Shown: in pieces, positions 85 to 53,666 of the stretch
Layout: the number at the start of each line of letters is the position of its first letter
Numbering within the stretch: position 1 is the stretch's first letter
Assembly (NCBI GenBank): GCA_030586555.1
Contig: JAURAC010000006.1
Coordinates: forward strand, 16,794-80,793
Source of the DNA: Candidatus Subterrananammoxibius californiae
Lineage (GTDB): Bacteria > Planctomycetota > Brocadiia > Brocadiales > Subterrananammoxibiaceae
Length of the DNA: 64,000 nucleotides
Reading direction: 5' to 3'
Notes under the pieces: model-generated
What the model saw: the letters and a program-made list of their open reading frames with translations, nothing else
Told to the model about the DNA's origin: nothing
Databases searched by the model: none
Position numbers and translations under genes: made by a program

Positions 85-1809
85 TCATTCCTGCGCAAGC
101 AGGAATCCATGTTTAATATCTAAGTTATACAGAACTAATTCACTACAAGGATTGTCAATGTATCTGTCGCTCCTGAAACGCTTCAAAAGCCTTAAACCAC
201 CAATAGCTGGAACTATGCCCTCTACCTGAGAAGTACACAAAACGGTCTCAGGTATTACAAGTGATGAGTTAATATCGTACTCAAGGTCGTTAATATTTCT
301 CGCCCTCCTAATATCCCAGCCGAAGGCATAATAGTCAAAGAGTCTTTTTGTATCCCAACAATAAAGCCTCGTTGACAGTTTATCGAAGTTGTCCGTTATG
401 TAATTCATAACCTGCACTTGAAGCGGCAGGGTCCACTTGTGTTTTATAATTAGCCTGAAGGAACTTACACCAAGTGTAATTATTAAAAGACCAATAATTA
501 TAGTTTTAAGAATGTTATTATAACCACCCCTCAATCCCCTCCTTGCGAAGGAGGGGATAAAGGGGAGGTCATAGATTGTATTGACCTTTTCCCTCCTTCG
601 CAAGGAGGGGATAAAGGGGAGGTTAAGGAGTGAAGGACTTATCCTAACCAGCCCATAAGAGAGACATATTAACAATATTGGAACCAAGGGTAGAACGTGC
701 CTCGGTTTTTCTAAGTTCTGGCAAAATAATACCCATACAGAGTAGGGTATCATATACAACAAGACAAATATACTTTGCTGATTCAATCTCAAAGATTGTG
801 TCAGCGTTTTTACGCCTGCCATTAATATTATAACAGATGGTATAAGACGTGTACCAGAAGTATCATGCCACCAAAATCCCAACCCGTTGCACAACAAACA
901 CCATAAAAACGCCAATAACCGTAGGGGCAGTTCTCTAACTGCCCCTACACCCGAGGACACCGTGCCGACAGCTCCACCCCAATCTGTAAAGTGTCCGTAT
1001 GTGAATGAGAGGGCATTCCCTAATAAATTTGTAAATTTTACATGGTGTATCATAGGAATAAGCCAGAGAGAGATACCAAACGCTAACGAAGCAACACCAC
1101 TACATATCGCAGTTACTCTGCCTTTTTGCCTACATATATGGATTAATGCAAATACCCAGATAGCGATAAAAGGGAAATAAGCCAATCGTATGCCTAAGGT
1201 TAGCGCAAAAACTATACCACCAGTAACAAAGTATGCCATTGAATATCTTTTAGGCTTTAAACCTGAAAATAACAACTGCGCCGATAGCATTAAAAAGAAC
1301 AAGCCCATAGAATCTGATGTAGGCTTTTCTGATTGCAGCCAGCAAAGCGGATTAACTATAAAGAGCAGCGCTGTTACAACTGCAACCTCTCTGGAAAACA
1401 TCTCTTTGGCAAGCGAGTAAAGCGGCATTATTGTCAGGGCGCCGAAGATTGCCCCCGGCAACGTGAGCGCAAGCGCATCGTTACTGAAAACCCTCGACAC
1501 AAGCCAGCAAAAGAATATATATACCGGATAGCCAGGAAATTGCGGCTGATAACGTGTGATGTCGTAGTCATGAAGGGCAAACGCAAAGTCCACATCATCC
1601 CACCCCTCCAGATACTCGCCCATAAAAGCTATGCGGAAAGCAAGACATACAAATAAGAGGGGAAATAGGGAATAGGGAATAGGGAATAGGGAACATGAGA
1701 ATTTGCTATTGGCTATTCCCTCTTGGCTATTCCCTTTTAGCTGTCCTGACTCCTGACTTCTGACCCCTGACCCCTGATTCCTGACGCTATGGTTATTGTT
1801 TGACATCAT
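85..1809 (-). CDS. GT-C fold (PMT/ArnT, GT39-like) membrane glycosyltransferase with several repeat-derived inserts
   Basis: WDDVDF..PQFPGYPVY first loop and many TM helices; N-terminus partly repeat-derived, so start is uncertain. Confidence 0.7.
   Translation of the reverse strand: MMSNNNHSVRNQGSGVRSQESGQLKGNSQEGIANSKFSCSLFPIPYSLFPLLFVCLAFRIAFMGEYLEGWDDVDFAFALHDYDITRYQPQFPGYPVYIFFCWLVSRVFSNDALALTLPGAIFGALTIMPLYSLAKEMFSREVAVVTALLFIVNPLCWLQSEKPTSDSMGLFFLMLSAQLLFSGLKPKRYSMAYFVTGGIVFALTLGIRLAYFPFIAIWVFALIHICRQKGRVTAICSGVASLAFGISLWLIPMIHHVKFTNLLGNALSFTYGHFTDWGGAVGTVSSGVGAVRELPLRLLAFLWCLLCNGLGFWWHDTSGTRLIPSVIILMAGVKTLTQSLRLNQQSIFVLLYMIPYSVWVLFCQNLEKPRHVLPLVPILLICLSYGLVRISPSLLNLPFIPSLRRREKVNTIYDLPFIPSFARRGLRGGYNNILKTIIIGLLIITLGVSSFRLIIKHKWTLPLQVQVMNYITDNFDKLSTRLYCWDTKRLFDYYAFGWDIRRARNINDLEYDINSSLVIPETVLCTSQVEGIVPAIGGLRLLKRFRSDRYIDNPCSELVLYNLDIKHGFLLAQE
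526..623. repeat. Two family-F palindromes (CCCTCCTT-GCG/CGC-AAGGAGGGG type), in frame in the glycosyltransferase
   Basis: tcccctccttgcgaaggagggga and ccctccttcgcaaggagggg; encode LPFIPSLRRRE / LPFIPSFARRG. Confidence 0.85.
921..948. repeat. Family-A REP-like palindrome GTAGGGGC...GCCCCTAC, in frame
   Basis: gtaggggcagttctctaactgcccctac encodes VGAVRELPL on the minus strand. Confidence 0.9.
1664..1786. repeat. Heptamer tandem arrays (AATAGGG)n and (TCCTGAC)n in the 5' part of the CDS
   Basis: aatagggaatagggaataggg...; tcctgactcctgacttctgacccctgac. Confidence 0.85.
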
Positions 1810-1880
1810 GGTTGTTATATTTTATACTTAACATCATCAAAAGTAAAACCAAACTTACTTTTTGAAAAAAGTGGGCTAAA

Positions 1881-3641
1881 ATGAACATTATCATAATATT
1901 ATCCGCTATTATCCTGTGCTTTTTTCTTGCCTGCCGGTTCTATGCCCGATATATTTCTAAGGCTATGGGGTTAGACCATCGCCGCATAACCCCCGCGCTG
2001 GAAAAGGATGATGGGCGTGATTATGTGCCAACCAAAACGCCCGTTGTGTTTGCCCACCATTTCGCCTCGATTGCAGGCGCAGGACCTATTATCGGTCCAA
2101 CCATTGCCCTTATCTATGGTTGGGGTCCTGCATGGTTATGGGTGGTTATAGGGGGTATATTCTTTGGGGCGGTCCATGATTTCTCAGCCATTTTTGTCAG
2201 CATTCGTGAGGGTGGCAAGTCAATTGCAGAGATAGCCCGTAAGACGCTCGGCAAGAATGGATTCATCATGATGATAGCCTTCGCCATAATTATGCTTGTC
2301 CTTGTTAATGCTACCTTCCTGAATGCCTCTGTTACAGCCCTGACCTCCATGATAGAGCCTGCACAATTGAATCTAAACAGCGAACAACATATCTTCCGAG
2401 AAATAGGAGAAGGCGCAGATAAAAAGATTGTCATCGGCGGGATTGCATCTGCATCCGTGGTCGTTATTACACTTTTTGCGCCGCTTTTAGGTTTCCTTTA
2501 TTTAAAGAAAAATGTCCCAGTTATCCTCTGCTCTTTATTTGCTATTATTGTCTGCGTTCTTTCTGTAACTATTGGTATTTACCGCCCAATCACTCTTAGC
2601 CCCCTTGTATGGATGACCTCAATCGCTGTTTATACATGGATTGCCGCTGGCATCCCTGTGTGGATATTCCTTCAGTCCAGGGATTTTATTAATGTGCACA
2701 TTCTTTATGCTGGCATAATTATACTCGTGGCTGGAATTTTTTCTTACGGCTTTAAAGGCGCCCAGATTAATTTCCCTGCCACAAATATTGTCGAAGGGGT
2801 TGACAATATCGGCTATATCTGGCCTGCCATCTTTATCACCATTGCATGTGGGGCTATTAGCGGCTTCCATTCGTTATGCGGAACGGGAACAACCTGTAAG
2901 CAGCTTAAAAGCGAATACTCAACACGACAGGTAGGCTATTACGCCATGCTCCTTGAATCATTCCTTGCAGCCAGCGTTATTGCCGTATTAGTAATTGGCA
3001 TTGACTTTAGCCATTATAAACAGCTTGTCTTTCCCGCCCTTAGTTCTGGTCAAAAGGGCAATCCGATTCTGGCGTTTTCTTTAGCCATGGGACACACCCT
3101 CGGGAACGGGCTCGGACTACCGGTGGCATTCGGCACAATCTTTGGCATGTTGTTACTTGAGGGTTTTATCGTAACGTCACTCGATACCGCCGTACGTTTG
3201 AACCGATACCTCTTTGAGGAACTCTGGCACGTCATCTTCTCAAGACCGCCTGCATTCTTACGCCACTATATGTTCAACTCTGGGCTGGCAGTAGTTTTAA
3301 TGTTTTGCCTTGCCCGTAACAACACGGTAGCCACTATATGGTCAATCTTTGGCGCCGCAAACCAATTGCTTGCCGCCCTTTCCCTACTTGCGGTCTCCTT
3401 CTGGCTACTAAATAATGGCAAAAGGCTCTGGTACACAATTATCCCTGCAAGCTTTATGCTAATAACGACCATCTCTATGTTAGTAATCTTGCTTATTACT
3501 AATTACCTGCCGAACGGCAACTATCCATTAATAATAGCAAGCATACTGCTTTTGTGTCTGGCGGCGGGAATTATTGGAACCGCCATTAATGTGTATGGCA
3601 GGTATCTTAGAAATTCCTGTAAAATGGTAGTGAGAACATGA
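1881..3641 (+). CDS. cstA: Carbon starvation protein A family transporter
   Basis: DGRDYVPT, HHFASIAGAGPIIGP, ITIACGAISGFH motifs. Confidence 0.92.
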   Translation: MNIIIILSAIILCFFLACRFYARYISKAMGLDHRRITPALEKDDGRDYVPTKTPVVFAHHFASIAGAGPIIGPTIALIYGWGPAWLWVVIGGIFFGAVHDFSAIFVSIREGGKSIAEIARKTLGKNGFIMMIAFAIIMLVLVNATFLNASVTALTSMIEPAQLNLNSEQHIFREIGEGADKKIVIGGIASASVVVITLFAPLLGFLYLKKNVPVILCSLFAIIVCVLSVTIGIYRPITLSPLVWMTSIAVYTWIAAGIPVWIFLQSRDFINVHILYAGIIILVAGIFSYGFKGAQINFPATNIVEGVDNIGYIWPAIFITIACGAISGFHSLCGTGTTCKQLKSEYSTRQVGYYAMLLESFLAASVIAVLVIGIDFSHYKQLVFPALSSGQKGNPILAFSLAMGHTLGNGLGLPVAFGTIFGMLLLEGFIVTSLDTAVRLNRYLFEELWHVIFSRPPAFLRHYMFNSGLAVVLMFCLARNNTVATIWSIFGAANQLLAALSLLAVSFWLLNNGKRLWYTIIPASFMLITTISMLVILLITNYLPNGNYPLIIASILLLCLAAGIIGTAINVYGRYLRNSCKMVVRT

Positions 3642-3862: not shown

Positions 3863-3895
3863 TATCATCATTCTCAGTTTAATGGAAGCCATTTT

Positions 3896-3950
3896 GCGCA
3901 GGCTAAAGTTCGCCACGGCGAATCTGCCTCAGGCACGACCTACGACTACA
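3896..3950. repeat. REP-like hairpin (CGCAGGCTAAAGCCT.CG) interrupted by 30-bp element B (3909-3938)
   Basis: gcgcaggctaaag[ttcgccacggcgaatctgcctcaggcacga]cctacgactaca. Confidence 0.85.
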
Positions 3951-4005
3951 CGTTGTAATCCGTTATAACAATTTTCAATGTCTATTTTTGGGTAGGGGTT
4001 TTTGC

Positions 4006-6127: not shown

Positions 6128-7245
6128 AGGTCTTTCTTTCCTTAAGTTGTAGGGGCGTATTGTTCGCCATGGCGAATCTGCCTCAGGCACGACAATACGC
6201 CCCTACGGTTGTCATTCTGCTTTATATTCTATCCACCTCTGCCTTCGGTGAAACCCGGGTACTCTTTTCCCCCGAAGGTAGTATAAGGGACTGTATCCTT
6301 GAAAATATCGGCGGTTGCAGTTCATCCATTGAAATAGCGGTATACGACTTCGCCTCGGGCGATATTGCAGAAGCCCTCATTAACGCCAAAAATAGAGGCA
6401 TAAAAATAAGGGTTGTGCTGGACAAGAAGCAAGCAGAGAAGGAAGGCTCTTTATACGGCTTCCTTAAGGATGAGGGTTTTGACGTGCTATTGGTGAAGGG
6501 CAGGGTTGGCGGAAGTATGCACAACAGCTTTGTGATATTTGATAACAAACTCGTGTTGACAGGCTCATACAACTGGACGGAATATGCAGAAAAATTTAAC
6601 TATGAAAACGTAATCCTTACTGACGAAAAAGCGGTGGTTGAAATGTATCAAAACGAGTTTGAGAGATTGCGTGTGGGTACGGAGATAGTAGAAAGGAAAC
6701 AAGAGCCTGTTACCCAAATCCAGCCTCCTGCTCCCTTGAAAGCAGCGCCACAGGAAGAAATAAAGACAGAGGAGTTAAAAGCAGATACGGGAAAACAAGA
6801 CAGCAAGTCCTGGTTAGATTTCCTTTCAACATATCCTAAAAAACCTCCTCCTCCCTCACCAGCAGAAGGCGCCCCAGAAAAGGAATTTTTAGATATATCT
6901 TTTGAAGAGCTTGATAAGATTTTTGGTAATGAAAGTACGCTCTCAAAGGCTGAAAAAAACGAAAAATGGGAGCAGTATAAGGGAAAATACGTGAGATGGA
7001 CGGGCGAGGTTGTGTACAGGGGCATTGGCCGCACCGATTGGAACAGGATGGGGGTTAAGCATACAAATACGGATAAGTTAGATGTTGAACTGTGGTTCGA
7101 TTATAGAATGATGGATACGGTCTTAAGTATTAATAAAGGGAATATCATTACCTATACAGGCATGCTATCTATCAGGCGTGGTTACAATTCGCCTTATAGA
7201 ATCAAAAATGCCTGGATAGAGGAGTATCTCCATCAAAAACCGTAG
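6124..7245 (+). CDS. PLD-like nuclease-fold protein with variant HKD motif and C-terminal probable OB-fold
   Basis: FSP, IAVYDF, MHNSFVIFD..TGSYNWT..NYEN; Pro-rich linker. Confidence 0.75.
   Translation: MKVFLSLSCRGVLFAMANLPQARQYAPTVVILLYILSTSAFGETRVLFSPEGSIRDCILENIGGCSSSIEIAVYDFASGDIAEALINAKNRGIKIRVVLDKKQAEKEGSLYGFLKDEGFDVLLVKGRVGGSMHNSFVIFDNKLVLTGSYNWTEYAEKFNYENVILTDEKAVVEMYQNEFERLRVGTEIVERKQEPVTQIQPPAPLKAAPQEEIKTEELKADTGKQDSKSWLDFLSTYPKKPPPPSPAEGAPEKEFLDISFEELDKIFGNESTLSKAEKNEKWEQYKGKYVRWTGEVVYRGIGRTDWNRMGVKHTNTDKLDVELWFDYRMMDTVLSINKGNIITYTGMLSIRRGYNSPYRIKNAWIEEYLHQKP
6149..6206. repeat. Family-A palindrome carrying element B at its centre; read through in frame
   Basis: gtaggggcgtattg[30 bp]caatacgcccctac; identical to 9226-9283. 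Confidence 0.92.
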
Positions 7246-7937: not shown

Positions 7938-8405
7938 ATGAAATTTTTTTTGAAGCCTTATTGTGCAATCTGGGCTATAATTATATTATCGGTAGCATGT
8001 TCAAGAAGCGTAACCTCTCCTACTTACAAGTGTAATGGGGTTATTGACGGCGATACCATAGTAGTGGAAGGGGTGGGCAAGGTGAGACTCCTCGGCGTAA
8101 ATGCTCCAGAGATAAAGGATACGCACAGGGGCGTTCAACGATTCGGTATGGAATGCACCATGTTCACTGAGCAAAATCTTCTGGGCAAGCAGGTAAGGCT
8201 TGAATACGATGAAATGAGGATGGATAGTTTTGGCAGAACCCTGGCATACGTTTATGTGGACGATACCCTTTTTAATGCTGAACTGGTAAAGCAGGGCTAT
8301 GCTTTAGTGTATGCTAAGTATCCTTTCAAGTACCTCGATGAATTTCGAAGGTTTGAAATGGATGCAAAAAAGAACGGCAGGGGGATATGGTCTTATCAAA
8401 GGTAG
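7938..8405 (+). CDS. Thermonuclease (SNase) family lipoprotein
   Basis: VIDGDTI, VRLLGVNAPE, DSFGRTLAYVY; lipobox-like SVAC. Confidence 0.92.
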   Translation: MKFFLKPYCAIWAIIILSVACSRSVTSPTYKCNGVIDGDTIVVEGVGKVRLLGVNAPEIKDTHRGVQRFGMECTMFTEQNLLGKQVRLEYDEMRMDSFGRTLAYVYVDDTLFNAELVKQGYALVYAKYPFKYLDEFRRFEMDAKKNGRGIWSYQR

Positions 8406-8413
8406 CACTAAGT

Positions 8414-9229: not shown

Positions 9230-9283
9230 GGGCGTATTGTTCGCCATGGCGAATCTGCCTCAGGCACGACAATACGCCCCTAC
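9226..9283. repeat. Family-A palindrome plus element B; supplies the kinase TAG stop
   Basis: 58/58 identical to 6149-6206. Confidence 0.92.
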
Positions 9284-12938: not shown

Positions 12939-12967
12939 GTAGGGGCAGGTTTAAAACCTGCCCCTAC
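12939..12967. repeat. Family-A palindrome, intergenic
   Basis: gtaggggcaggtttaaaacctgcccctac. Confidence 0.9.
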
Positions 12968-14068: not shown

Positions 14069-14085
14069 TTACATTTTCCCCTATC

Positions 14086-14153
14086 TTTGCGTTCTTTGCG
14101 CTTGGTTTGTGTTCTTTGCGAGAAATACGTTTTTTTCACGCAAAGGGTGCAAA
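14086..14153. repeat. Inverted ~9-10-mer array (CTTTGCG / CGCAAAG)
   Basis: ctttgcgttctttgcg...cacgcaaagggtgcaaag. Confidence 0.6.
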
Positions 14154-14169
14154 GTTATTGCCCATTTTT

Positions 14170-15315
14170 TCATGTTGGTTGGGGCTTGCTTACTTTAGCA
14201 TTACTAAAAGTTGCCATCTGGGTAAGGATTTTTACTCCCGCCTCAACGAGACTCATCCCCAATGCAGCGCCAGTCCCCTCGCCGAGTCGAAGGTTGAGGT
14301 CAAGAAGGGGCTTCTTTCCGAGGTACTCAAGCACGAATCCATGTCCTTTTTCAACCGATTTATGAGAGGCTATAAGATAATTGTTTACCTTCGGAGATAG
14401 CCTGCATGCTATAAGAGCACCCACAGTGGAAATGAACCCATCAAGTAATACTGGAATCCTGTGCCGTGCCGCAGCAAGGCATAACCCTGCAATGGCACCA
14501 ATTTCAAACCCACCGACCTTTGCAAGGACATCTACGGGGTCTGAAACATCGGGCTTGTTGACTTTAAGAACCTGCTTGATTGTTGCGATTTTCTTTTTAA
14601 GCGCAATATCATCCAATCCCGTTCCCCTTCCCGTAACCTCTTCAATGTCTGTCCCTGTTAGCACTGCAAGGATTGCACTGCTTGGAGTGGTGTTGCCGAT
14701 GCCCATATCACCGGTACCTGCAATGTCTATTCCATCGGGCAATTCCTCTTCAAAAACCTCTATGCCTCCCTCGATGGCACGCATTGCCTCACCCCTCGAC
14801 ATAGCAGGACCCTTAAGCATATTCTTTGTCCCGTAACCAATCTTCTTGATGCAAAATCGAGGACTCGTACTATTGTTATACCCCCCCTTATCCCCCCCTT
14901 GCGAAGGGGGGGATTGAGGAGGGGTTATATTGCCGAAATCCGATGCCACACCACAATCAACCACAATAACCCTTGCCCCCACATGCCTTGCCAGCACATT
15001 AATTGCCGCCCCGCCATCGATGAAATTCAGAACCATCTGCCTTGTTACCTCCTGAGGAAATAGGCTCACACCTTCCTCCACAATCCCATGGTCACCTGCC
15101 ATAGTAAATATTACCTTGTGCATTTGGGTGGCATGGACAAACTTGTTTGTCCGTGCAGTACCCCTTATAGAGGCATAGACTATAGCAAGCTCCTCAAGCC
15201 TTCCGAGACTTTTCCTCGGGATGGCAAGCTCATCCAGCCGCGCTCGAATAGCACCATCCGCATCTATCTTAATCTCTTCTATATTTTCAATGGTTTTGTC
15301 TAAAAGTGTTGCCAT
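14170..15315 (-). CDS. cobT: Nicotinate-nucleotide-dimethylbenzimidazole phosphoribosyltransferase with two in-frame repeat inserts
   Basis: SLGRLE, AGDHG, GDMGIGNTT, LRLGEGTGA. Confidence 0.95.
   Translation of the reverse strand: MATLLDKTIENIEEIKIDADGAIRARLDELAIPRKSLGRLEELAIVYASIRGTARTNKFVHATQMHKVIFTMAGDHGIVEEGVSLFPQEVTRQMVLNFIDGGAAINVLARHVGARVIVVDCGVASDFGNITPPQSPPSQGGDKGGYNNSTSPRFCIKKIGYGTKNMLKGPAMSRGEAMRAIEGGIEVFEEELPDGIDIAGTGDMGIGNTTPSSAILAVLTGTDIEEVTGRGTGLDDIALKKKIATIKQVLKVNKPDVSDPVDVLAKVGGFEIGAIAGLCLAAARHRIPVLLDGFISTVGALIACRLSPKVNNYLIASHKSVEKGHGFVLEYLGKKPLLDLNLRLGEGTGAALGMSLVEAGVKILTQMATFSNAKVSKPQPT
14881..14926. repeat. Family-F palindrome in frame in cobT
   Basis: Encodes TPPQSPPSQGGDKGG. 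Confidence 0.85.
15126..15156. repeat. Family-D hairpin in frame in cobT
   Basis: Encodes ARTNKFVHAT; exact copy of intergenic 9354-9384. Confidence 0.92.
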
Positions 15316-16194: not shown

Positions 16195-16263
16195 TTTGAT
16201 ACCTCTTCTTGATTTGATAGCAAAATCTTGATAATCTTGGCAAATTTAATTCCATGAACCAAA

Positions 16264-17835: not shown

Positions 17836-20439
17836 ATGACAAAAAGAGAATATAATTTTAAGGAAATCGAGCCGAAATGGCAGAAGTTCTGGAATGATAT
17901 CGGGCTCTTTCGTCTCGATGAAAAAAGTAAGAAGGAAAAGTTTTACTGCCTTGTGATGTTCCCATATCCATCGGGGACGTTGCATGTGGGGCACGGGAGA
18001 AATTACATTATCGGCGATGTGGTTACCCGCTATAAGATTATGAAGGGCTATAACGTCCTCTCACCCATGGGATGGGATGCCTTTGGTTTGCCAGCCGAAA
18101 ACGCCGCCATTAAGAGCGGCATACATCCTGGCATTCACACAAAAAACAATATTAGCGCCATGAAGAAGCAACTCCACCGCTGGGGGGTTGGCTATGACTG
18201 GGACAGGGAGGTTACAGCCTGCGAGCCTGATTATTACAAGTGGACGCAATGGATATTCTTAAAACTTTACGAACATGGTCTTGCATACAAGAAAAAGGCA
18301 TACGTGAACTGGTGTCCCTCCTGCGCAACGGTGCTGGCAAATGAGCAGGTTATTGATGGCCTTTGCGAACGCTGCGATAGTAAGGTCAAACAAAAAGAAC
18401 TTGAGCAGTGGTTCTTCAAAATCACAGATTATGCCCAAAGGCTTCTCGACGACATGGCGCTGCTCACCAAATGGCCTGAAAAGGTAAAGCTCATGCAGGC
18501 GAACTGGATTGGCAGGAGTGAGGGGGCAAGAATTGACTTTCTAATCCCCCCTCACCCCCCTTTAATAAAGGGGGGAATAGGGGGGATTAAAATTAGTTGC
18601 TTTACCACCCGTCCCGATACACTTTACGGGGTTACATTCATGATACTTGCCCCTGAGCATCCCATTATTGAGGAATTAGTTGCCGGCGCAGAAACATATA
18701 AAGATATAATGGCTTTCGTTGAAAAGGCAAAAAGTGAGAGTTTTCTTGAGCGTTCTGCAGAATGGGCGGAAAAGGAAGGGGTCTTCACGGGAAGACATGC
18801 TATAAACCCGATAAATGGGGAAAAGGTGCCTATCTGGGTTGCAAACTATGCCCTCATGGAATATGGAACTGGAGCGGTTATGGCAGTTCCTGCGCATGAC
18901 CAGCGGGACTTTGAATTTGCAAAAAAATATAACCTCTCGATAAGGGTTGTCATACAGCCTGAAGGACAAAGCCTCGACCCTCAAACAATGAAAGAAGCTT
19001 ATATAGGGGATGGCATCCAGGTCAATTCAGGAGACTTTAACGGCTTGCCAAATAGGCAGGCAATGTCAAAGATTATTGAATATCTTGGGAAAAAAGACAT
19101 TGGTAAAGCGGCAGTGAGCTACAAGCTAAGGGATTGGCTCATCTCTCGGCAAAGGTACTGGGGAGCGCCTATTCCCATAGTTTATTGCAATAAATGTGGC
19201 ACGGTTCCCATGCCTGAAAAGGACTTACCCGTCCTTTTACCTGAAAAGGTTGAGTTTAAGCCTCATGGACAATACAGTATTGTATCTACTGACAGGGGTC
19301 CAGTTTATGTGCCGGAAAAGGTTGAGTTTAAGCCTTATGGACAAAGCCCCCTCGCATACGTAGAGGAATTTACAAATACCAAGTGTCCAAAATGTGGTGG
19401 AAGCGCACAAAGGGAAACCGATACGATGGATACATTTGTCGATTCGGGCTGGTATTACCTCCGTTATCTCTCTCCCCACGATGATAGCAAGGCATTTGAC
19501 ACTGAAAAGGTAAATAAGTGGCTGCCTGTTGACCAATATATAGGCGGTGTTGAACATGCCATATTACATTTATTATATTCGAGGTTCATAACAAAGGTTC
19601 TTTTTGATATGGGCCTCGTCAATTTTAATGAGCCCTTCAAAAACCTCTTTACGCAGGGGATGATTATTAAAAATGGGGCAAAGATGTCGAAGTCTAAGGG
19701 AAACGTGGTCAGCCCTGACGTTCTTATAGACAAATACGGCGCAGATACGCTGCGCCTTTATACCCTCTTTATAGGACCCCCAGAACGTGACGCAGAATGG
19801 AGCGACAGAGGGGTTATTGGCGCATACCGTTTCCTTAATCGCCTGTGGCAAAAAGTCATGGAGTTCAAGAGTCAAGAGTCAGGAGTCAGGAGTCAGATAT
19901 CGGGACTCAATACTTTTGACTCAAGACTCTTGACTCAAGACTCAAAGACTCTTTACAGGCAAACCCATCTTACTATTAAAAAGGTAACAGAGGATATAGA
20001 AGACTCATGGCACTTTAATACGGCAATAGCCTCGATAATGGAGTTATTTAATTCCGTTGAGAAATTCAATCCTTTACCTACCGAAACAGATAGTTTCAAA
20101 GTCTTACGGTTTTCTCTGGAAACAATTATCGTCCTGCTTACCCCTCTTGTTCCTCATATAAGTGAGGAACTCTGGGAGATGATGGGGCATGAACCAAGTA
20201 TCTTTTCACTGCCCTGGCCCACTTATGATGAAGAAGCCACAAAGGCAGAGGAAATAGAGACGGTCATTCAGATAAATGGCAAGGTGCGAAGTCGTCTTGT
20301 AGTGCCCGTTGATATACCAGAGGACGACTTGAGACGGCGTGCATTAGAAGATGAAAGGGTAAAAGAATTTCTTGACGGGAAGAAGATTAGCAAGGTTATT
20401 CTGGTACAAAAGAAATTGGTTAATATTGTAACAGCCTAA
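17836..20439 (+). CDS. leuS: Leucine--tRNA ligase carrying three in-frame inserts
   Basis: MFPYPSG.LHVGH, GTGAVMAVPAHDQRD, KMSKS. Confidence 0.98.
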   Translation: MTKREYNFKEIEPKWQKFWNDIGLFRLDEKSKKEKFYCLVMFPYPSGTLHVGHGRNYIIGDVVTRYKIMKGYNVLSPMGWDAFGLPAENAAIKSGIHPGIHTKNNISAMKKQLHRWGVGYDWDREVTACEPDYYKWTQWIFLKLYEHGLAYKKKAYVNWCPSCATVLANEQVIDGLCERCDSKVKQKELEQWFFKITDYAQRLLDDMALLTKWPEKVKLMQANWIGRSEGARIDFLIPPHPPLIKGGIGGIKISCFTTRPDTLYGVTFMILAPEHPIIEELVAGAETYKDIMAFVEKAKSESFLERSAEWAEKEGVFTGRHAINPINGEKVPIWVANYALMEYGTGAVMAVPAHDQRDFEFAKKYNLSIRVVIQPEGQSLDPQTMKEAYIGDGIQVNSGDFNGLPNRQAMSKIIEYLGKKDIGKAAVSYKLRDWLISRQRYWGAPIPIVYCNKCGTVPMPEKDLPVLLPEKVEFKPHGQYSIVSTDRGPVYVPEKVEFKPYGQSPLAYVEEFTNTKCPKCGGSAQRETDTMDTFVDSGWYYLRYLSPHDDSKAFDTEKVNKWLPVDQYIGGVEHAILHLLYSRFITKVLFDMGLVNFNEPFKNLFTQGMIIKNGAKMSKSKGNVVSPDVLIDKYGADTLRLYTLFIGPPERDAEWSDRGVIGAYRFLNRLWQKVMEFKSQESGVRSQISGLNTFDSRLLTQDSKTLYRQTHLTIKKVTEDIEDSWHFNTAIASIMELFNSVEKFNPLPTETDSFKVLRFSLETIIVLLTPLVPHISEELWEMMGHEPSIFSLPWPTYDEEATKAEEIETVIQINGKVRSRLVVPVDIPEDDLRRRALEDERVKEFLDGKKISKVILVQKKLVNIVTA
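18544..18587. repeat. Family-F palindrome in frame in leuS
   Basis: Encodes IPPHPPLIKGGIGGI. Confidence 0.88.
19240..19344 (+). repeat. 33-bp direct repeat inside leuS (72-bp offset)
   Basis: PEKVEFKPHGQ / PEKVEFKPYGQ. Confidence 0.9.
19865..19951. repeat. Inverted heptamer arrays in frame in leuS
   Basis: (gagtcar)n ... (gactcaa)n encoding KSQESGVRSQ...DSRLLTQDSKT. Confidence 0.85.
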
Positions 20440-20509: not shown

Positions 20510-21514
20510 ATGGACTTTGAACATTTCAAAAGGGTAATTTCTAAGGGTCAGGTTGCCCCACTGTATGTGCTTCACGGCGAGGAAGAATTCTTTATCCGTG
20601 AGTCTCTGTCACTGCTGAAATCAATGTTCTTGAAGGGTTCGGACCCTTCCACGTCCCTTACTGAATTTGACGGCATGGATGCTACAGACCCGCCTCAGGC
20701 TGGCATCTTTAATGAATTGCGGACAACACCACTCCTTGGAGCAGCAGGCAAGCGCATGGTCATAGTTGAGAATGCAGACGATTTTATCGGAAAATACAAA
20801 AATCTTCTGGAGAAATATCTTGAGACGCATGCGCCGTATAGCTGTCTGGTTCTAATATGTAAGAAGTTTGACAAAAGAACAACCCTTTCTGCAAAGATTA
20901 ATCGAATCGGAGGTGAGATTGAGTGCAAAAGACTGAACGAATTTGAACTTTCTTTATGGATTCAACAAAGGGCAAGACATTACGGTAAAACGGTAACACC
21001 ACAAGCTATACAGTCCCTTATGGAAGCCATAGGAAATAAACCTGCGCTAATTGATAAGCACCTTGAAAAGCTATCCATATACCTTGACAAAAGACCAACA
21101 ATACAGGAAGACGATGTTGAAAACCTTGTAAGGGTTAACAGGACCCGTACCGTATTTGAACTAACAGAGGCGATTGCACAAAAGAATACAGAAAAGGCAT
21201 TAAAAGTATTGAATCAGCTTTTAGTCGCAGGCGAGGAGGGCGTCAAAATAATAAGTATGCTTACATGGCAAATAAGACGCTTGTGGCAGGCAAAGCACAT
21301 TTTAAGCACAGGGAAAAAGGCAGAGACGGTTGCTTCGGAACTGAAGATTAATCCCTATTATCTAAAGGATTTTATTAAACAAACCGGGCATTTTACCGAA
21401 GTATCCTTACAAAAAAAGTACGAACACATCCTCCTTGCAGATTTCCAGAAAAAGACAAGCGCAATGGATGAGCAATTGCTCTTGGAATGCCTCGTATATA
21501 AATTGTGCGGGTAA
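20510..21514 (+). CDS. holA: DNA polymerase III delta subunit
   Basis: YVLHGEEEF, LEKLSIY, VFELTEAI; follows leuS. Confidence 0.9.
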   Translation: MDFEHFKRVISKGQVAPLYVLHGEEEFFIRESLSLLKSMFLKGSDPSTSLTEFDGMDATDPPQAGIFNELRTTPLLGAAGKRMVIVENADDFIGKYKNLLEKYLETHAPYSCLVLICKKFDKRTTLSAKINRIGGEIECKRLNEFELSLWIQQRARHYGKTVTPQAIQSLMEAIGNKPALIDKHLEKLSIYLDKRPTIQEDDVENLVRVNRTRTVFELTEAIAQKNTEKALKVLNQLLVAGEEGVKIISMLTWQIRRLWQAKHILSTGKKAETVASELKINPYYLKDFIKQTGHFTEVSLQKKYEHILLADFQKKTSAMDEQLLLECLVYKLCG

Positions 21515-33315: not shown

Positions 33316-34426
33316 TACAGTTATTCCTTGGCCCGCATGAGGCGGAGGAAACATTATTTACTGGCAGGGTAATGGTGAATGTAGTGCCTTTGCCTTTTTC
33401 ACTCTCTACTGATAGAGCGCCGCCGTGGTTCTTGATAATTCTGTAGGAAACGCAAAGGCTCAGGTCCGTCTCTTCTCCCCCATTATTAATTGCATAGAAC
33501 GGGTCAAAAATCCGACCGATTATATTTGAAGGAATTCCCGGGCCTGTGTCCTTAAAACTTATCTGTACAAGGTTAGAATTTTGTGCCTTTGTCACAACCT
33601 CGAGTTTACCCTTGCCACGCATAGACCTTTTTGAATTGTTAACTATGTTCTTACAAGAGAGTTTCAATTGCTTGCTGTTGGCATTGATTTTTGGTAAATC
33701 AGGTTGTAAATTCTGGGTTACAATAATACCTGCATTTAGTTCATCCTTAGTAAGCGGAGTCAGCACCTCTTTTAAAAGGCTATTTAAGTCAACGGGTGTT
33801 TGGTCAGAATCCATCGGTTGGGCGAATGTTAGCAAATTCTTTACAAGGTCAGCAATGCGCTGTGCTTCTTCCTCCATTATGGCGTAAACACGAAAATTCT
33901 GGTTCTTCTCCCCGGCATCTGCAATAAGCATTTGAAGATGGCCGGAGATAGTTGTTAGAGGGTTATTAATCTCGTGGGCAATCCGTGTGGCTAAACGTTC
34001 CAAAGGCTGTTGCAATCCGCCTGAGGCGGATTGCGGAGTGCGGATTTCAGATTGCGGAATAACTTTGAACTCTCTTTGAACAATACAGTGTAATTCGCTT
34101 AAAGAAAGGGGTTTTAAAATATAGGAACTGGCGCCCTGTTCCAGCGCCTTTGTTGCTTTCTCACGATTTCCTATAGAGAAGGAAACCAAAATGCGTATAC
34201 CCGGCTTGATTTCCCTTGCTGCATCAATAAATTGCATCTCCTTATTGCCGATGTCATCAATATCAAGGATGACCAGGTCAATTTTTTTCTCTGCAATCAT
34301 GGAAATGGCACGAAAGAGATTAGATTCACTAAAGATGGTGTATCCTTCTTTAGATAACAGGTTAACAGCCATCTTCATGTTCGTGTCGTTTTCGTATACA
34401 GCAAGAATTGCAGGATTAGAGGACAT
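33308..34426 (-). CDS. Receiver-like domain plus histidine kinase, degenerate motifs
   Basis: AHEINNPL, DTGPGI, IFDPF; G2 box reads ETDLSL. Confidence 0.85.
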   Translation of the reverse strand: MSSNPAILAVYENDTNMKMAVNLLSKEGYTIFSESNLFRAISMIAEKKIDLVILDIDDIGNKEMQFIDAAREIKPGIRILVSFSIGNREKATKALEQGASSYILKPLSLSELHCIVQREFKVIPQSEIRTPQSASGGLQQPLERLATRIAHEINNPLTTISGHLQMLIADAGEKNQNFRVYAIMEEEAQRIADLVKNLLTFAQPMDSDQTPVDLNSLLKEVLTPLTKDELNAGIIVTQNLQPDLPKINANSKQLKLSCKNIVNNSKRSMRGKGKLEVVTKAQNSNLVQISFKDTGPGIPSNIIGRIFDPFYAINNGGEETDLSLCVSYRIIKNHGGALSVESEKGKGTTFTITLPVNNVSSASCGPRNNCNV

Positions 34427-34473: not shown

Positions 34474-35525
34474 TACCTATCTAAAAGAGGCGCCAATAGT
34501 GGCAAAGTAACGGTAATTACCGTTCCTTCTCCCACCGTACTTTTTAGACTCAATCTTCCTTCATGTTCTTCAATAATTTTTTTGCAAACAAAGAGGCCAA
34601 GTCCTGTTCGGCGTACCTGTCCATTACTTGTATAAAAGGGTTCAAACACTTTATTAAGGTTTTCCGGGGGTATCCCACAGCCTGTATCTCGAATCTCCAC
34701 TTCTACGTTGTTTCCTTCCGAATGACGCATGCTGACAGACAATTTGCCCCCGTTTGGCATCGCATCCCTTGCATTTTGTATCAGATTAAGGAAGAGTTGC
34801 TTTAGCTTGTACGGGTCGGCAAACACCCTTATTGATGCAGGGATTGAAGTAGGGGCAGGTTTTAAACCTGCCCCTACCAGCTCTGCGGGCTCGAAATTCT
34901 TCACAATTTCAATATTTTCCACCCTCATCTGGTATCCAACCAATAGTAGCACATCTTCGAGTACCTTTTTCAGGTCAACCTCCCTTTTCTCAGAGGCTCG
35001 CTGCGCTGCAAAGTCCAGGAGTTCATTTACTATCTTTGAAATTCGTTCAGATTCTTCGGTGAGCATTCTGAAGGTAAGTTTTTTTGGGTCTGTTTCTGGC
35101 AACTCGGCAGAAAGCATCTGTAAATAACCTGATACATAAGTTAGTGGATTCCTGATTTCATGAGCTATGCCAGCGATTATCTCGTTAAGGCAGAGTATCT
35201 TATTCAGTTGAACAAATGAGTAAAATTTGCCTGTATCTTCCGCTCTCCTGACCGCTATCAAAAAGCCGTTCGTATCCTTTCCAAAGTATTTATAAACGGT
35301 CAGTTCAAACGTTTTGTCATCTTTCGTTACGATGTGTCTTTCCGGATATGTGCTATCATCCTTGGGGAATATGCTCACAGGGAACAACTCGTACCAGTGT
35401 CTGCCTAATATGATATTGTTAATTCCCAGTCCCTTCATGCCTTCGCTGAAGGCGTTTACGACCCCATTCTCATCGGCCACGAGGATGCCAAAAGGCACCT
35501 CAATCTCAGTTAAAGAGTCTGGCAT
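34473..35525 (-). CDS. Sensor histidine kinase (PAS-like N-terminus)
   Basis: AHEIRNPL, NLIQNA, DTGCGI, TGLGL. Confidence 0.9.
   Translation of the reverse strand: MPDSLTEIEVPFGILVADENGVVNAFSEGMKGLGINNIILGRHWYELFPVSIFPKDDSTYPERHIVTKDDKTFELTVYKYFGKDTNGFLIAVRRAEDTGKFYSFVQLNKILCLNEIIAGIAHEIRNPLTYVSGYLQMLSAELPETDPKKLTFRMLTEESERISKIVNELLDFAAQRASEKREVDLKKVLEDVLLLVGYQMRVENIEIVKNFEPAELVGAGLKPAPTSIPASIRVFADPYKLKQLFLNLIQNARDAMPNGGKLSVSMRHSEGNNVEVEIRDTGCGIPPENLNKVFEPFYTSNGQVRRTGLGLFVCKKIIEEHEGRLSLKSTVGEGTVITVTLPLLAPLLDR
34849..34877. repeat. Family-A palindrome in frame in the histidine kinase
   Basis: Encodes VGAGLKPAPT. Confidence 0.92.
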
Positions 35526-39732: not shown

Positions 39733-39847
39733 CCCCCTCACCCTATCCCTCCCCCTCGAGGGGGAGGGTGACATGGATAAACTTGTTTATCCGTGTCCGC
39801 CTGAGGTGGATTGGGCAGCACGGACAAACACAGTTTGTCCATGCCAC
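39733..39847. repeat. Mosaic of families F, D, C and inverted D
   Basis: ccctccccctcgagggggaggg / catggataaacttgtttatccgtg / tccgcctgaggtgga / gcacggacaaacacagtttgtccatgccac. Confidence 0.85.
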
Positions 39848-42238: not shown

Positions 42239-43000
42239 TTAAAAATTGAGCCGAATGCCTATATAGCCAAGCAAATGCGGTTCACCGCTGCTTCTCTCTC
42301 CAAGGCTCCTACCTGCCGAACCCATTACGGAAAAAAGTTTACTGAACCTGTACCTGAAGCCAGCATTAAATAGCGGTGGATTAACCTCTGTGTATTCTGG
42401 TATAAGCCCAAAAATCTCTCCTACGGCATCAAGTCTCTTTAGAACAGGATACTCGCCAAAAAAGCCATAAAACAATTCATTGTTTTCGTCTTTTTCACGA
42501 TGTATTAAATATCCTATCTGAGAACCCATATAAAGGGATTTAATATGGATGTCAAATTCCAATGGCAAAAAGTAATAAGGCTTGGTATGTTCACTACTCG
42601 TTGGTATAAATACCGCTGGTGTAGCAGAGACGGACGGGAATAAGCCTGTTTCGTCTATAAACCTGTATTTCGTTGCGAACTGGATGTCCCCAAGACCGCT
42701 ATCTTTACCGTTTTCATCGTGGTCTAAAGAGTTATGAGGTATCACTAAATTTAGTTGCGTTCTCTCTCCAAGCCCATAATTGGCATCAACAATGAATCCC
42801 GTGGCTCTTTCGTGAATCGTATTTCTTGTGGTGTAAGCAAGATTAATTTCCCATCTGTTATGACCCGGCGTGCCTGTGTCGTCTGTAATGAGTGGAGGTC
42901 CCCCACCTAAAAGTAGGGGCAATTCATGAATTGCCCCTACAAAATTTTCAAATACAAAGCAGGTAAACATAAATGATAAAGAAAAACAAGACAACTTCAT
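42239..43000 (-). CDS. Putative outer-membrane beta-barrel/transporter
   Basis: GPPLITDDTGT, GLGDI, C-terminal Phe; lies in the NikR operon. Confidence 0.65.
   Translation of the reverse strand: MKLSCFSLSFMFTCFVFENFVGAIHELPLLLGGGPPLITDDTGTPGHNRWEINLAYTTRNTIHERATGFIVDANYGLGERTQLNLVIPHNSLDHDENGKDSGLGDIQFATKYRFIDETGLFPSVSATPAVFIPTSSEHTKPYYFLPLEFDIHIKSLYMGSQIGYLIHREKDENNELFYGFFGEYPVLKRLDAVGEIFGLIPEYTEVNPPLFNAGFRYRFSKLFSVMGSAGRSLGERSSGEPHLLGYIGIRLNF
42913..42940. repeat. Family-A perfect palindrome in frame
   Basis: gtaggggcaattcatgaattgcccctac encodes VGAIHELPL. Confidence 0.92.
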
Positions 43001-49785: not shown

Positions 49786-50952
49786 TCAGCCTGTCGCCTT
49801 CTGCCTTTCTCGTGCCTCATGCCTTGCCCATTTATCCACAGCCATTGTTTCCTCAAGGGTGGGGTTCTCTCCTGAGGCGGATGAAGAATGCTTATTCATA
49901 ACGTTTTCAATAAGCGTAGTAATATCCGTAAATTTAATCTGCCCATCTAAGAATGCCTGAACTGCAACCTCATTTGCAGCGTTCATGACGGTACCCATTG
50001 TCCCGCCCAGTCGTGCAGCCTCAAAACCAAGCCTGAGGGCGGGAAATTTTTCAGGCTCTGCCTTAAAGAAGGTTAACTCCCCTGTTTTAGCCAGGTTTAA
50101 TGATTGCAGCCTCGAATTTTTACGATTCGGATAAGTAAAGGCATATTGAATGGGTACCTTCATATTAGGCATGCCCATCTGGGCAACGACAGAACTATCG
50201 CAAAACTCTACCATTGAATGGACGATGGATTGAGGATGGATTAAGACCTCAATCTGGGATGGGTCTAAATCAAAAAGCCACTTAGCCTCGATAATTTCAA
50301 GAGCCTTGTTCATCAGGGTTGCCGAATCAATGGTTATCTTCCGCCCCATGCGCCATGTCGGATGATTTAAGGCTTGTTCTACTGTTACCTCTTTCAATTC
50401 TTCAACGGACAATTTAAAGAAAGGGCCTCCAGACGCCGTTAGTATAACCTTTTTCACCTCTTTGCGCTTTCCAGCCTGAAGTGCCTGAAATATTGCGCTA
50501 TGCTCGCTGTCAACCGGCAAGATTTTTACCCCATTTTTCTTCGACATCGGCATCACTATCCCGCCAGCCATAACAAGGGGTTCTTTATTAGCAAGCGCCA
50601 GTGTCTTACCACACCTGATAGCCTCAAGAACAGCAGGGAGCCCTGCCGCACCTACGATTGCAGAGAGGACAATATCCACTTCATCCTTTGCAACGATTTC
50701 TTTGATGCTGTCAGGTCCGGCAAGAATCTCGACCTCATTGTTTGACACCCTTTCTCGCAATTTAGGAAGGAGTGATTCATCAGTTAGCGCTGCCCATCTG
50801 GGACGAAACTCCTCAATTTGCTCCGACAGGACATCCCATCGTGAGTTTGCGGAAAGGCCAGCAACCTTATACCCCCTCCCGAGATTGCGTATGACTTCAA
50901 GCGCATTCCTGCCTATAGAACCTGTAGAACCCAGAATTACGATATTCTTCAT
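49786..50952 (-). CDS. dxr: 1-deoxy-D-xylulose-5-phosphate reductoisomerase
   Basis: LGSTGSIG, LANKE, PVDSEH, HPTW.MG.KITIDSAT. Confidence 0.97.
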   Translation of the reverse strand: MKNIVILGSTGSIGRNALEVIRNLGRGYKVAGLSANSRWDVLSEQIEEFRPRWAALTDESLLPKLRERVSNNEVEILAGPDSIKEIVAKDEVDIVLSAIVGAAGLPAVLEAIRCGKTLALANKEPLVMAGGIVMPMSKKNGVKILPVDSEHSAIFQALQAGKRKEVKKVILTASGGPFFKLSVEELKEVTVEQALNHPTWRMGRKITIDSATLMNKALEIIEAKWLFDLDPSQIEVLIHPQSIVHSMVEFCDSSVVAQMGMPNMKVPIQYAFTYPNRKNSRLQSLNLAKTGELTFFKAEPEKFPALRLGFEAARLGGTMGTVMNAANEVAVQAFLDGQIKFTDITTLIENVMNKHSSSASGENPTLEETMAVDKWARHEARERQKATG

Positions 50953-50973
50953 ACACTGCCTGTATACACCTTG

Positions 50974-51083
50974 TGTCATGCCGAACTCATTTCAGCATCT
51001 ACTTGTTTCAGCATCTCTTTGTCCTTACCCAACGAGACCCTGAAATAAATTCAGGGTGACGGGATGAGCAGTTCGGGGTGACA
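50974..51083. repeat. Family-H REP cluster
   Basis: gtcatgccgaactcatttcagcatct ... agaccctgaaataaattcagggtgac. Confidence 0.75.
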
Positions 51084-52838: not shown

Positions 52839-52922
52839 TAAATATAAAGCATTAATGTAAAAATATCTAAAATATGCTACGTTGTCCCATTATAGCTACA
52901 ATGAGAATATTGTCAATGAAAA

Positions 52923-53666
52923 TTAACCTCCACATTCCGTACTCCGCATTCCGGCGATAGCCTCGGCAAGCGCTAAATCCTCAGGCGTAGTAATCTTTAT
53001 ATTAATATCGCTGTCTCGTACGATTGCCACCTTATAGCCGAATCTTTCTGCCACTTCGGCGTCATCCGTAACTTCCGCATCTGTGGCAAGAAGTTTTTTG
53101 TATGCGTCCATAATAATGTGTTTCTTAAAGCCCTGGGGTGTCTGCGCCATCCAGAGGTCAGCCCTGGGCACAGTACGGGAAATAAGTAGGGGCGTATTGC
53201 AATACGCCCCTACTTGCTTTACCGTATCTTTTATTGGCACTGCGGCGATTGCCGCGCCATGTTCTTCTACCTTCTTGATAACAGCCTCGATAATCTCCTT
53301 TGTGACAAAGGGCCTAACAGCATCGTGAATCAGAACTATATCACAGTTAGCATCCAACTGTAGAAGCCCATTATAAACGCTGTCCTGCCTTCTTTTGCCG
53401 CCGGGAATAATCTTTGTCCTCTTTTGCTCACTAAGGCGGTCGTTCCACTCATTAACAACCGCAGAATGGTCATCAGGATTTACGACAAGGATTATCTCAT
53501 GAACACATTCAAAGCAAGAGAACTTCTCAAAGGTGTGGAGAAGTATCGGTTTGCCATTAATACTCAGAAATGGCTTCCTTACATTTCCACCCATGCGCAA
53601 ACCAAGCCCTGCTGAGGGGATAATTACAGAGACATTCGATACGTTCGCTTCGCTCAGTACAGGCAT
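52923..53666 (-). CDS. ispD: 2-C-methyl-D-erythritol 4-phosphate cytidylyltransferase
   Basis: AG.G.RM, RQDSV, IHDAVRP, QTPQ, TDD, KITTPEDL; start uncertain. Confidence 0.95.
   Translation of the reverse strand: MPVLSEANVSNVSVIIPSAGLGLRMGGNVRKPFLSINGKPILLHTFEKFSCFECVHEIILVVNPDDHSAVVNEWNDRLSEQKRTKIIPGGKRRQDSVYNGLLQLDANCDIVLIHDAVRPFVTKEIIEAVIKKVEEHGAAIAAVPIKDTVKQVGAYCNTPLLISRTVPRADLWMAQTPQGFKKHIIMDAYKKLLATDAEVTDDAEVAERFGYKVAIVRDSDINIKITTPEDLALAEAIAGMRSTECGG
53186..53213. repeat. Family-A palindrome in frame in ispD (empty form of 6149 and 9226)
   Basis: gtaggggcgtattgcaatacgcccctac encodes VGAYCNTPL. Confidence 0.93.

Follow-up and report, generated by a model that had tools for sequence, protein, structure and literature searches.

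Short palindromic repeats of several families, mostly of REP type, lie in frame within genes of Candidatus Subterrananammoxibius californiae

The stretch of DNA analysed here, referred to as the window, comprises 64,000 nucleotides of the genome of Candidatus Subterrananammoxibius californiae (G000:C128:16794-80793), an assembly of 3.34 Mb in 150 contigs with 42% G+C, an estimated contamination of 5.1% and two matches to the hydrazine-synthase alpha domain, by which this groundwater bacterium is placed in the anammox order of planctomycetes. The window is rich in short palindromic repeats of several families, and ten of its genes, encoding a PMT_2 glycosyltransferase, a PLD-like protein, CobT, the leucyl-tRNA synthetase LeuRS, HolA, a hybrid kinase, a histidine kinase, a Phenol_MetA_deg barrel protein, Dxr and IspD, carry such repeats within the reading frame (Table 1). 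An earlier note on this DNA had listed 14 in-gene sites, and at all of them the repeats are present, with a frame that is open throughout and in open reading frames (ORFs) that are supported by Pfam in all ten genes. The peptides named there (VGAGLKPAPT, VGAYCNTPL, VGAIHELPL, ARTNKFVHAT and PPHPPLIKGG) are exactly those translated from the gene frames, and the in-gene inserts belong, as had been claimed, to several dispersed palindromic families and are identical in kind to the intergenic copies. The repeats here measure 13-59 nt and encode 4-20 aa, and they are mostly repetitive extragenic palindromic (REP) elements.

Family A has the form GTAGGGGC-loop-GCCCCTAC, with sub-families (A1, A2, A3) that are split by the inner stem; family A4 begins with GTAGAGACGCAA, family B with GTGG followed by CATGGACAAAC, and family D, which has a single foot, with GTAGACAACGA. 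Family C is a hairpin of about 50 nt built of C runs and G runs, family E has the 13-nt palindromic core CCGCCTNAGGCGG, the heptamer arrays consist of tandem heptamers in inverted arrays, and a 30-nt element, termed I, is located in the loops of other repeats. GTAG feet are found in A, A4 and D and a GTGG foot in B; C, E and the heptamer arrays are without the GTAG foot, and on this criterion they cannot be classed with the REP elements. Chance is ruled out for the main repeat families, since GTAGGGGC-N8-16-GCCCCTAC was observed 6 times in the window against 0.00 expected from 100 shuffles, and CCGCCTNAGGCGG, with at most two mismatches, 9 times against 1.21 expected.

Over the whole genome (3.34 Mb) the 12-mers of the repeats reach up to 149 occurrences, and iterative consensus building recovered the families with a GTAG or GTGG foot (D, B, A1, A4, A2 and A3) plus C and E. 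Listing of hairpins with a stem of at least 10 and at most one mismatch yielded 2016 in the genome; single-linkage clustering merged 1464 of these in one cluster, and the families were set by strict patterns instead. The pattern counts with full flanks are 144 for A, 106 for B, 137 for D, 172 for E and 49 for C. Palindromes of the form GTAG...CTAC (pattern GTAG[GA]G[GA]C-N8-16-G[CT]C[CT]CTAC) number 145 genome-wide, 89 of which are 28 nt and 48 are 29 nt long. Two other identities were considered and rejected. CRISPR arrays do not account for the elements, as the two CRISPR-like consensus repeats found elsewhere in the genome, outside the window (36 and 32 nt; 26 and 22 copies of the seed 12-mer), differ from the hairpin elements; inteins and introns were set aside with inserts of 4-20 aa that show no such features.

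The genes were aligned at the protein level with their orthologs, for which up to 40 genomes of this order were drawn on. Extra residues at the repeat appear in this way for 8 of the 10 genes and span +2 to +24 aa, and the prediction that insert lengths should be multiples of three nucleotides is borne out at these sites. The same peptides in orthologs would have spoken against insertion, and none of the aligned relatives has the window peptide at the site. Two copies had been described as decayed, and here the outcome is divided: the HolA site is likely a decayed E copy, with one mismatch, but in Dxr, with two mismatches, the resemblance is near chance, given that about 1.2 chance matches of such quality are expected per window. 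In the barrel protein the start codon is conserved, and the DNA alignment with the paralog from the same genome gives a net gain of 18 nt with 10 paralog nt opposite the two feet, which is a single case. The histidine kinase repeat has a sister A1 copy at the 3′ end of the same gene (34445-34473), and the composite repeat of the PLD-like gene has an identical copy at 9225-9283 (100% over 59 nt) that overlaps the stop codon of ORF 8387-9229 and is otherwise intergenic.

Table 1. In-gene repeats of the window with the extra residues found in protein alignments. Positions are those of the window; the strand of the repeat site is in brackets.
Gene	Site	Repeat	Place or peptide	Residues gained
PMT_2 glycosyltransferase (85-1809)	519..627 (-)	Two adjacent family-C hairpins (519-573, 577-627), in frame	Residues ~395-431, flanked by two hydrophobic stretches	+19 or more vs 19 aligned homologs
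PMT_2 glycosyltransferase	921..948 (-)	Family-A double-foot REP, 28 nt	VGAVRELPLR, within conserved stretch	+7-8 vs 19/19 homologs
PMT_2 glycosyltransferase	1661..1738 (-)	Inverted heptamer arrays, GGGAATA type	N-terminal extension	Alignment uninformative
PLD-like protein (6124-7245)	6148..6206 (+)	A2 REP with I element in loop	20 aa in signal peptide	N-terminus unalignable to relatives
CobT (14170-15315)	14879..14929 (-)	Family-C hairpin	Residues ~129-146	+21 vs 24/27 orthologs
CobT	15125..15156 (-)	Family-B REP (GTGG foot)	ARTNKFVHAT	+6 vs 26/27 orthologs
LeuRS (17836-20439)	18539..18592 (+)	Family-C hairpin	Residues ~235-253, editing-domain entry	~+13-14 vs 21/27 orthologs without insert there; +9 vs T. 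thermophilus LeuRS 1h3n
LeuRS	19860..19950 (+)	Inverted heptamer arrays, AGTCAAG type	Residues ~675-705	Net +5 vs 27/27 orthologs, local sequence replaced; +6 vs 1h3n
HolA (20483-21514)	20690..20702 (+)	Likely decayed family-E palindrome, 1 mismatch	DPPQAG	+3 vs 20 orthologs (families f2, f4, f5)
Hybrid kinase (33308-34426)	34005..34060 (-)	Family-E palindrome and GCGGATT-type heptamers	Receiver-HisKA linker	Net +2 vs 6/6 orthologs, linker sequence replaced
Histidine kinase (34473-35525)	34849..34877 (-)	A1 double-foot REP, 29 nt	VGAGLKPAPT	+16; insert missing in 6/6 orthologs
Phenol_MetA_deg barrel (42239-43000)	42913..42940 (-)	Family-A REP	VGAIHELPLL, signal-peptide end	+6 (18 nt) vs own-genome paralog and 2 orthologs
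Dxr (49786-50979)	49868..49880 (-)	Possible decayed family-E palindrome, 2 mismatches	SSASGE	+3 vs 28/28 orthologs
IspD (52923-53681)	53186..53213 (-)	A2 double-foot REP, 28 nt	VGAYCNTPLL	+4 vs 24/27 orthologs

At two of these sites the repeat stands near the N-terminus, so that its translation depends on the start codon. The glycosyltransferase has no start codon (ATG, GTG or TTG) from residue 3 to residue 62, and as none lies between the repeat and the conserved part its heptamer array is probably translated. The PLD-like gene has no ATG, GTG or TTG between the repeat and the conserved part either, and since there is no alternative start downstream, the repeat in its signal peptide is probably translated as well. 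In three other called ORFs, REP copies lie in the first 5-25 codons (12939-12967, 26727-26804 and 39747-39768); the true starts of these ORFs probably lie downstream, and the three copies were excluded from the intragenic count.

Where the inserts fall in the proteins was judged from AlphaFold2 models of CobT and IspD built from the ortholog alignments, and in both modelled proteins they lie in loops, as the earlier note had supposed for surviving insertions. Both CobT inserts (residues 54-57 and 137-148) are coil with a predicted local distance difference test score (pLDDT) below 50, in a model with a mean pLDDT of 87 and a predicted template modelling score (pTM) of 0.90, and residues 54-57 are placed between a helix and a strand. 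The IspD insert forms a beta-hairpin loop (residues 158-166; mean pLDDT of the model 87). Other copies of the window are located in the linker between receiver and kinase, between hydrophobic stretches, and in or beside signal peptides.

The TAG-containing frame of the A palindromes has a stop in 145 of 145 copies, and among the 68 A copies that stand in long open frames 53 are read as GTA-GGG, 15 as xGT-AGG and none in the TAG frame. The open frames of A, C and E give peptides rich in Gly, Pro, Ala and Ser. The commonest variant of D, read from its consensus, is interrupted by stop codons in each frame of one strand and gives hydrophobic peptides from the other. How well the encoded peptide is tolerated would thus appear to set the ranking of the families within genes, i.e., A, C and E before B, and B before D.

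In-frame copies were counted over the whole genome in two ways. With genes called by a simple codon-usage model (3122 genes, 87% coding), a copy was counted as internal when it lay at least 40 codons from the start and at least 15 from the stop, with a positive coding score on both sides. Under strict patterns the internal in-frame copies are 100/230 for A-type, 26/110 for B, 27/69 for C and 9/27 for E, which makes 162 hairpins in 143 genes. A random 40 of the 143 genes, drawn with window genes and genes above 4.5 kb left out, were compared with Pfam: 38/40 contain a Pfam family, and the match lies on both sides of the repeat in 24/40 (18 of these within one domain stretch), on one side only in 14/40 and is absent in 2/40. 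The genes with repeats confirmed in this way include MnmE, GatB, ValRS, UvrC, ArgJ, LpxK, CoaE, Fmt and an electron transfer flavoprotein (ETF) subunit. The second measure is free of gene calls and asks for a copy within a frame that is open for 150 nt on both sides. Such frames hold 68/144 copies of A as a whole (47%), 11/26 of A4 (42%), 21/49 of C (43%), 77/172 of E (45%), 30/106 of B (28%) and 4/137 of D (3%), vs 1841/3000 random positions (61%).

Families A, A4, C and E are thus only weakly depleted from ORFs, and D stays extragenic. The extragenic feature of REPs is seen in D only, and not in A, A4, B, C or E, which does not exclude these from the REPs, because REP families with intragenic members have been published. 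Extragenic copies are close to gene 3′ ends and scarce between divergent genes; for D the median distance to the nearest gene 3′ end is 41 nt, and 8 of its 104 spacer copies lie between divergent genes, vs 19% of spacer length, so that D behaves as a classical REP. By a rough calculation, a genic event in A, C and E survives about one third as often as a spacer event, because 87% of the genome is coding, which is to be compared with the ORF share of these families.

The genome also encodes enzymes of the type that is linked to REP elements, i.e., REP-associated tyrosine transposases (RAYTs). Y1_Tnp (PF01797) has 8 matches, 7 of them above the Pfam cut-off; seven of the eight Y1 genes are best matched by NF047646 REP_Tyr_transpos (five over the 80-bit NCBIfam cut-off) and one is of IS200 type. 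All seven RAYT-like genes show HUH and Y motifs. Four of the seven have cognate repeats adjoining: L094 has family B copies on both sides, L092 and L098 have their own palindromes on both sides (24 nt and 21 nt, respectively), and L097 (G000:C59:10841-13999, ORF 1444-2004 (-), 187 aa) has an A copy just upstream. A second A copy stands in frame inside L097 (L097:1682-1711), directly after the HUH motif, where it encodes CRGGSRTAPT; the motifs of this protein are NHLH, WQ and YIINNP. L095, with the motifs DHVH and YIINNP, has one E copy 18 nt upstream, and no cognate repeats were found beside L093 and L096. In the window itself an intergenic stretch (31684-31749) contains a perfect inverted repeat of 21 nt with a spacer of 24 nt, and this repeat resembles the palindrome that flanks L092 on both sides.

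A sign of mobility, judged from sequence, may be seen in the nesting of the I element. Of its 20 copies, at least 11 occupy precisely the loop of an A2, A4, B or other hairpin, each adding 30 nt without duplication; in the window, A2 and B hairpins hold it at 6148-6206, 9225-9283, 28079-28137 and 3894-3952. Terminal inverted repeats with target-site duplication, of the insertion sequence (IS) type, were sought for the 145 A copies and for the I element and not found. For the binding, cutting and rejoining of REP as single-stranded DNA the TnpA_REP of E. coli is the precedent, according to parts of two reports (PMC3479197; PMC8266576).

Relatives provide a second view of movement. The loop of LeuRS that holds the family-C hairpin contains other REP-type peptides in 5/27 orthologs, and 3/27 CobT orthologs have inserts of their own in the loops of the window inserts. 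Among four species of a single related genus, three REP arrangements occur in this LeuRS loop, all in frame and with nearly identical flanks: a decayed A1 (30 nt), a GTGG hairpin with A1 (48 nt), and an A-type REP with an E-type repeat and a leftover A foot (63 nt). In one species of another genus of the same family this loop is without any repeat. Different repeats in one LeuRS loop may be taken as a sign of fast turnover at a fixed site. The spread reaches further, since at least 119 stretches in the collection of species-representative genomes contain the exact A1 palindrome (29 nt, 28 specified bases). Among the matches listed are records from Dehalococcoidia, Chloroflexia, Anaerolineae, Brocadia, other Planctomycetota, Nitrospirae, Oscillatoriales, Latescibacterota, Gemmatimonadota, Zixibacteria, Omnitrophota, Sumerlaeota, Binatia, Trueperaceae, several proteobacterial groups and others. 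Full flanks were available for 81 of these copies, and 13 of the 81 stand in a frame that is open over all 329 nt and read VGAG[LF]KPAPT or RGRF[QE]TCPY. Most A1 records are metagenome-assembled genomes (MAGs), and mis-binning may affect single records, but it can hardly account for the breadth. Literature searches for the exact strings of the A1 palindrome and its peptides gave no match.

The window contains duplications of other kinds too, some of them in genes that carry hairpin repeats. LeuRS has a 72-nt in-frame tandem duplication at 19240-19344 (33-nt repeat ends, 94% alike) that adds 24 aa and corresponds to a gap in T. thermophilus LeuRS; it appears to be polymorphic between strains, because precisely this 72-nt block is skipped by contigs of three other runs (X5, X7, X8). 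Another tandem duplication, diverged and about 1.9 kb in size (21302-23180 / 23296-25148, 71-89% identity), gave rise to paralogs of 535 and 527 aa and includes a second copy of the last ~200 nt of holA (86% at the protein level, with an internal TGA). Dispersed direct repeat pairs around small ORFs (59049-59348 / 59864-60163, 79%; 60378-60531 / 62775-62927, 93-94%) are unrelated to the hairpin families.

Taken together, these observations are probably explained by copies of several REP-type families that are linked to RAYT genes and read as loop residues. RAYTs, or TnpA_REP proteins, are enzymes of the HUH-Y1 type, by which hairpin DNA is cut and rejoined in single-stranded form. Copies would land in, or replace, short stretches of genes and spacers, and a genic copy would persist if the net change were a multiple of three, if its frame were free of stops and if a Gly/Pro/Ala-rich peptide came to lie in a loop, a linker or a signal peptide; persisting copies would then be translated within the protein. 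The double-foot A and A4 and the G/C runs of C and E would give loop-friendly peptides in most frames and so become common in genes, and the single-foot D, with stops or hydrophobic codons in its frames, would be kept downstream of genes. We infer from the sequence that the elements are moved by the RAYTs, that the peptides are produced, and that the frame is kept by selection and not by mechanism. The idea of the earlier note that only frame-preserving events in loops survive is reasonable as a filter model, and the multiples of three, the loops in two models and the empty stop frame (0/68) agree with it; the weak ORF depletion does not agree with a plain version of it.

Several observations weigh against this explanation. 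The depletion of A, A4, C and E from ORFs (42-47% vs 61%) is weaker than plain random insertion followed by a filter predicts, and a pure filter would require that many events fail or that selection is strong in spacers as well. The A elements of 28-29 nt (137/145) would shift the frame if they were plainly inserted, and the measured net gains of 12, 18, 21 and 48 nt (+4, +6, +7 and +16 aa) are not equal to their length, which suggests that the events were not simple insertions or that the loops were reshaped later. Inspection of the 8 Y1 genes out to 700 nt revealed no RAYT with C or D repeats adjoining, and as the GTAG foot is missing from C, E and the heptamer arrays, another kind of repeat may be involved in part of the finding. 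The 145 A copies are not flanked by target duplications and show just a mild A/T enrichment at -1 and +1. Finally, the 40 relatives searched all belong to other families of the order, and metagenome matches reach 67% identity at best; as no close relative offers an empty site, insertion is deduced from protein alignments at 45-70% identity. The high genic share might be due either to very many failures, to strong selection in spacers, or to frame-keeping exchange at existing sites.

Could the frame be kept by the mechanism itself? The units might amount to a net multiple of three, or earlier copies might be swapped foot to foot between GTAG and CTAC, in which case the elements would be adapted to coding DNA. 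In each of three hosts the nested I element measures exactly 30 nt, outside genes too, the depletion of A, A4, C and E from long ORFs is slight, and the LeuRS loop of congeners carries different REP families that are always in frame although their lengths differ by 18 and 33 nt. However, A elements of 28 or 29 nt are no multiples of three, the net gains vary, and there are no conserved flanking bases that complete a 30-nt unit. The own inserts in the same loops of LeuRS and CobT orthologs, which such exchange would produce, are equally expected from structural tolerance, and frame-shifted events are invisible anyway; a mechanism of this kind seems unlikely. A different proposal is that some repeats, above all E with its core CCGCCTNAGGCGG, are immobile, i.e., iterated palindromes that are selected or driven by mutation like the cyanobacterial HIP1. 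E is short and without the GTAG foot, its share of long open frames (77/172) is near the random rate, a single copy lies near a RAYT gene, and its core contains CCTNAGG, which we take to be a restriction-enzyme site. Against this, HolA, Dxr and the hybrid kinase have extra residues where the E-like stretch lies, the 30-nt I element, which behaves as an inserted block, includes E-like cores, and the families of 28-59 nt would be left unexplained; this proposal is therefore quite improbable.

Two further explanations would deny that the peptides belong to the enzymes at all. In-gene copies might be artefacts of the MAG assembly, with repeat k-mers mis-threaded into genes, and an assembly of 150 contigs with 5.1% estimated contamination invites such doubt, as do public contigs of other runs that end at repeats (534, 569, 18542-18576) with no bridging contig found. 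Yet ten genes are all open through their repeats and the stop frame is empty (0/68), unlike what random mis-threading would give. Part of the window is contained in 14 sequencing runs, with no RNA run among those listed; runs of a second study contain 83-90% of the sampled words of 14000-21600, and one contig from that study begins inside the family-C repeat of LeuRS and continues into the gene. No contig skipping a hairpin repeat was seen among the contigs listed from four runs. Relatives, including genomes in 1-10 contigs, show the same phenomenon in the same loop, and intragenic cases in finished genomes are described in passages of Di Nocera et al. (2013; PMC3733652). An assembly artefact is thus very unlikely, to the point of being negligible. 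Alternatively, the repeats might be removed from the mRNA or the protein, so that the peptides would be absent from the mature enzymes; in principle, hairpins could serve as sites of RNA processing. But the avoidance of the stop-bearing frame and the keeping of the downstream frame are needed only if the repeats are translated, and ten residues are far too few for an intein. In addition, Rickettsia proteins with the Rickettsia palindromic element RPE-1 at their N-terminus are expressed in vivo, as one passage states (PMC3733652). Removal is accordingly highly improbable.

Insertion of REP copies that are read as loop residues is then the explanation we retain, and not all of it is new. Intragenic REPs, double-foot REPs and REPs within RAYT genes have already been published, as passages of two papers make clear (PMC3733652; PMC6006769). 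New here are the density, the contrast between families in ORF depletion, the nesting, and the identity of A1 across phyla; the fast turnover at fixed loops deserves note as well. The double-foot palindromes together with C and E may even form a class of hairpins specialised for coding sequence, which enter or are swapped at loops with the frame kept, give peptides rich in Gly and Pro whichever way they are oriented, are renewed more quickly than the codons beside them and move between phyla; we hold this to be improbable. If it were true, essential enzymes would have a continual source of loop variation, rather than rare survivors of random insertion. In any case, dozens of housekeeping enzymes with repeat peptides bear on gene calling, on ortholog alignments and trees, on structure prediction and on metaproteomic searches in this uncultured group. 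The contrast between families amounts to a natural experiment on selfish DNA in a compact genome, where loop-friendly palindromes are tolerated in genes and the classical REP with its stops and hydrophobic codons is not. Should frame preservation prove mechanistic, or the spread across phyla real, the interest for protein evolution would be wider.

How do these repeats compare with known systems? The earlier note had been reminded of Rickettsia palindromic elements (RPE), but the feet, the copy number and the presence of RAYT genes make REP elements with their RAYT transposases the better match. RPE, reportedly described by Ogata and colleagues in 2000, are said to be palindromic repeats in frame in functional protein genes. 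Elements of the RPE-1 type are about 100-150 nt long and encode tens of residues. The in-frame position in functional proteins is shared, and tolerance on protein surfaces has been proposed for RPE; the repeats here, however, are 13-59 nt long, encode 4-20 aa, are mostly of GTAG type and coexist with RAYT genes in the genome, whereas RPE have no linked transposase. The small dispersed repeats (SDR) of filamentous cyanobacteria, attributed to Elhai and colleagues (2008), are said to be mobile repeats of 20-30 nt that are mutually nested and associated with heptamer tandem repeats. Nesting and heptamers occur also here, in another phylum.

The closest likeness is to REPs and their REPtrons. For density, Opitutus terrae may serve as the comparison: it has the most intragenic GTAG repeats in Di Nocera et al. 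(2013; PMC3733652), with 70 rows in part 1 of their Additional file 3, vs an estimated 160 or so in-frame hairpins in about 143 genes within 3.3 Mb here. The genome of O. terrae is about 6 Mb. The passages of that paper on these elements report GTAG/GTGG feet and several REP families per genome, each with its own REPtron, REPs wholly inside ORFs of known proteins, tRNA synthetases included, where they encode 7-30 aa, and extragenic REPs downstream of genes; the neutrality of intragenic copies is ascribed there to their location in linkers or loops (PMC3733652). This is matched here by GTAG/GTGG hairpins of 20-40 nt in high copy and multiple families, by RAYT genes flanked by their own REP, by in-frame copies within a tRNA synthetase and other genes, and by extragenic copies downstream of genes. 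The differences are that for four families here the share in ORFs comes close to that of random positions, and that C, E and the heptamer arrays are without the GTAG foot. Subclass 2.4 of TnpA_REP, with the signature NH[IFV]H, WQ and YIxNNP, is a further system for comparison (Quentin et al., 2018; PMC6006769). According to the passages on this subclass, double-foot REPs carry GT[AG]G at their 5′ end with its complement C[TC]AC at the 3′ end, and in-frame REPs occur inside the tnpA_REP gene (PMC6006769). The double foot of A and A4 and the in-frame REP after the HUH motif of L097 correspond to this. The motifs of L097 come close to the signature, with WQ and YIINNP but with NHLH in place of the published NH[IFV]H. 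In those passages the in-frame REPs lie in tnpA_REP genes, whereas here they occur proteome-wide. REPs are also called species-specific there (PMC6006769), and some families are found in more than one species according to the other paper (PMC3733652); A1, in contrast, recurs letter for letter in MAGs labelled with many phyla.

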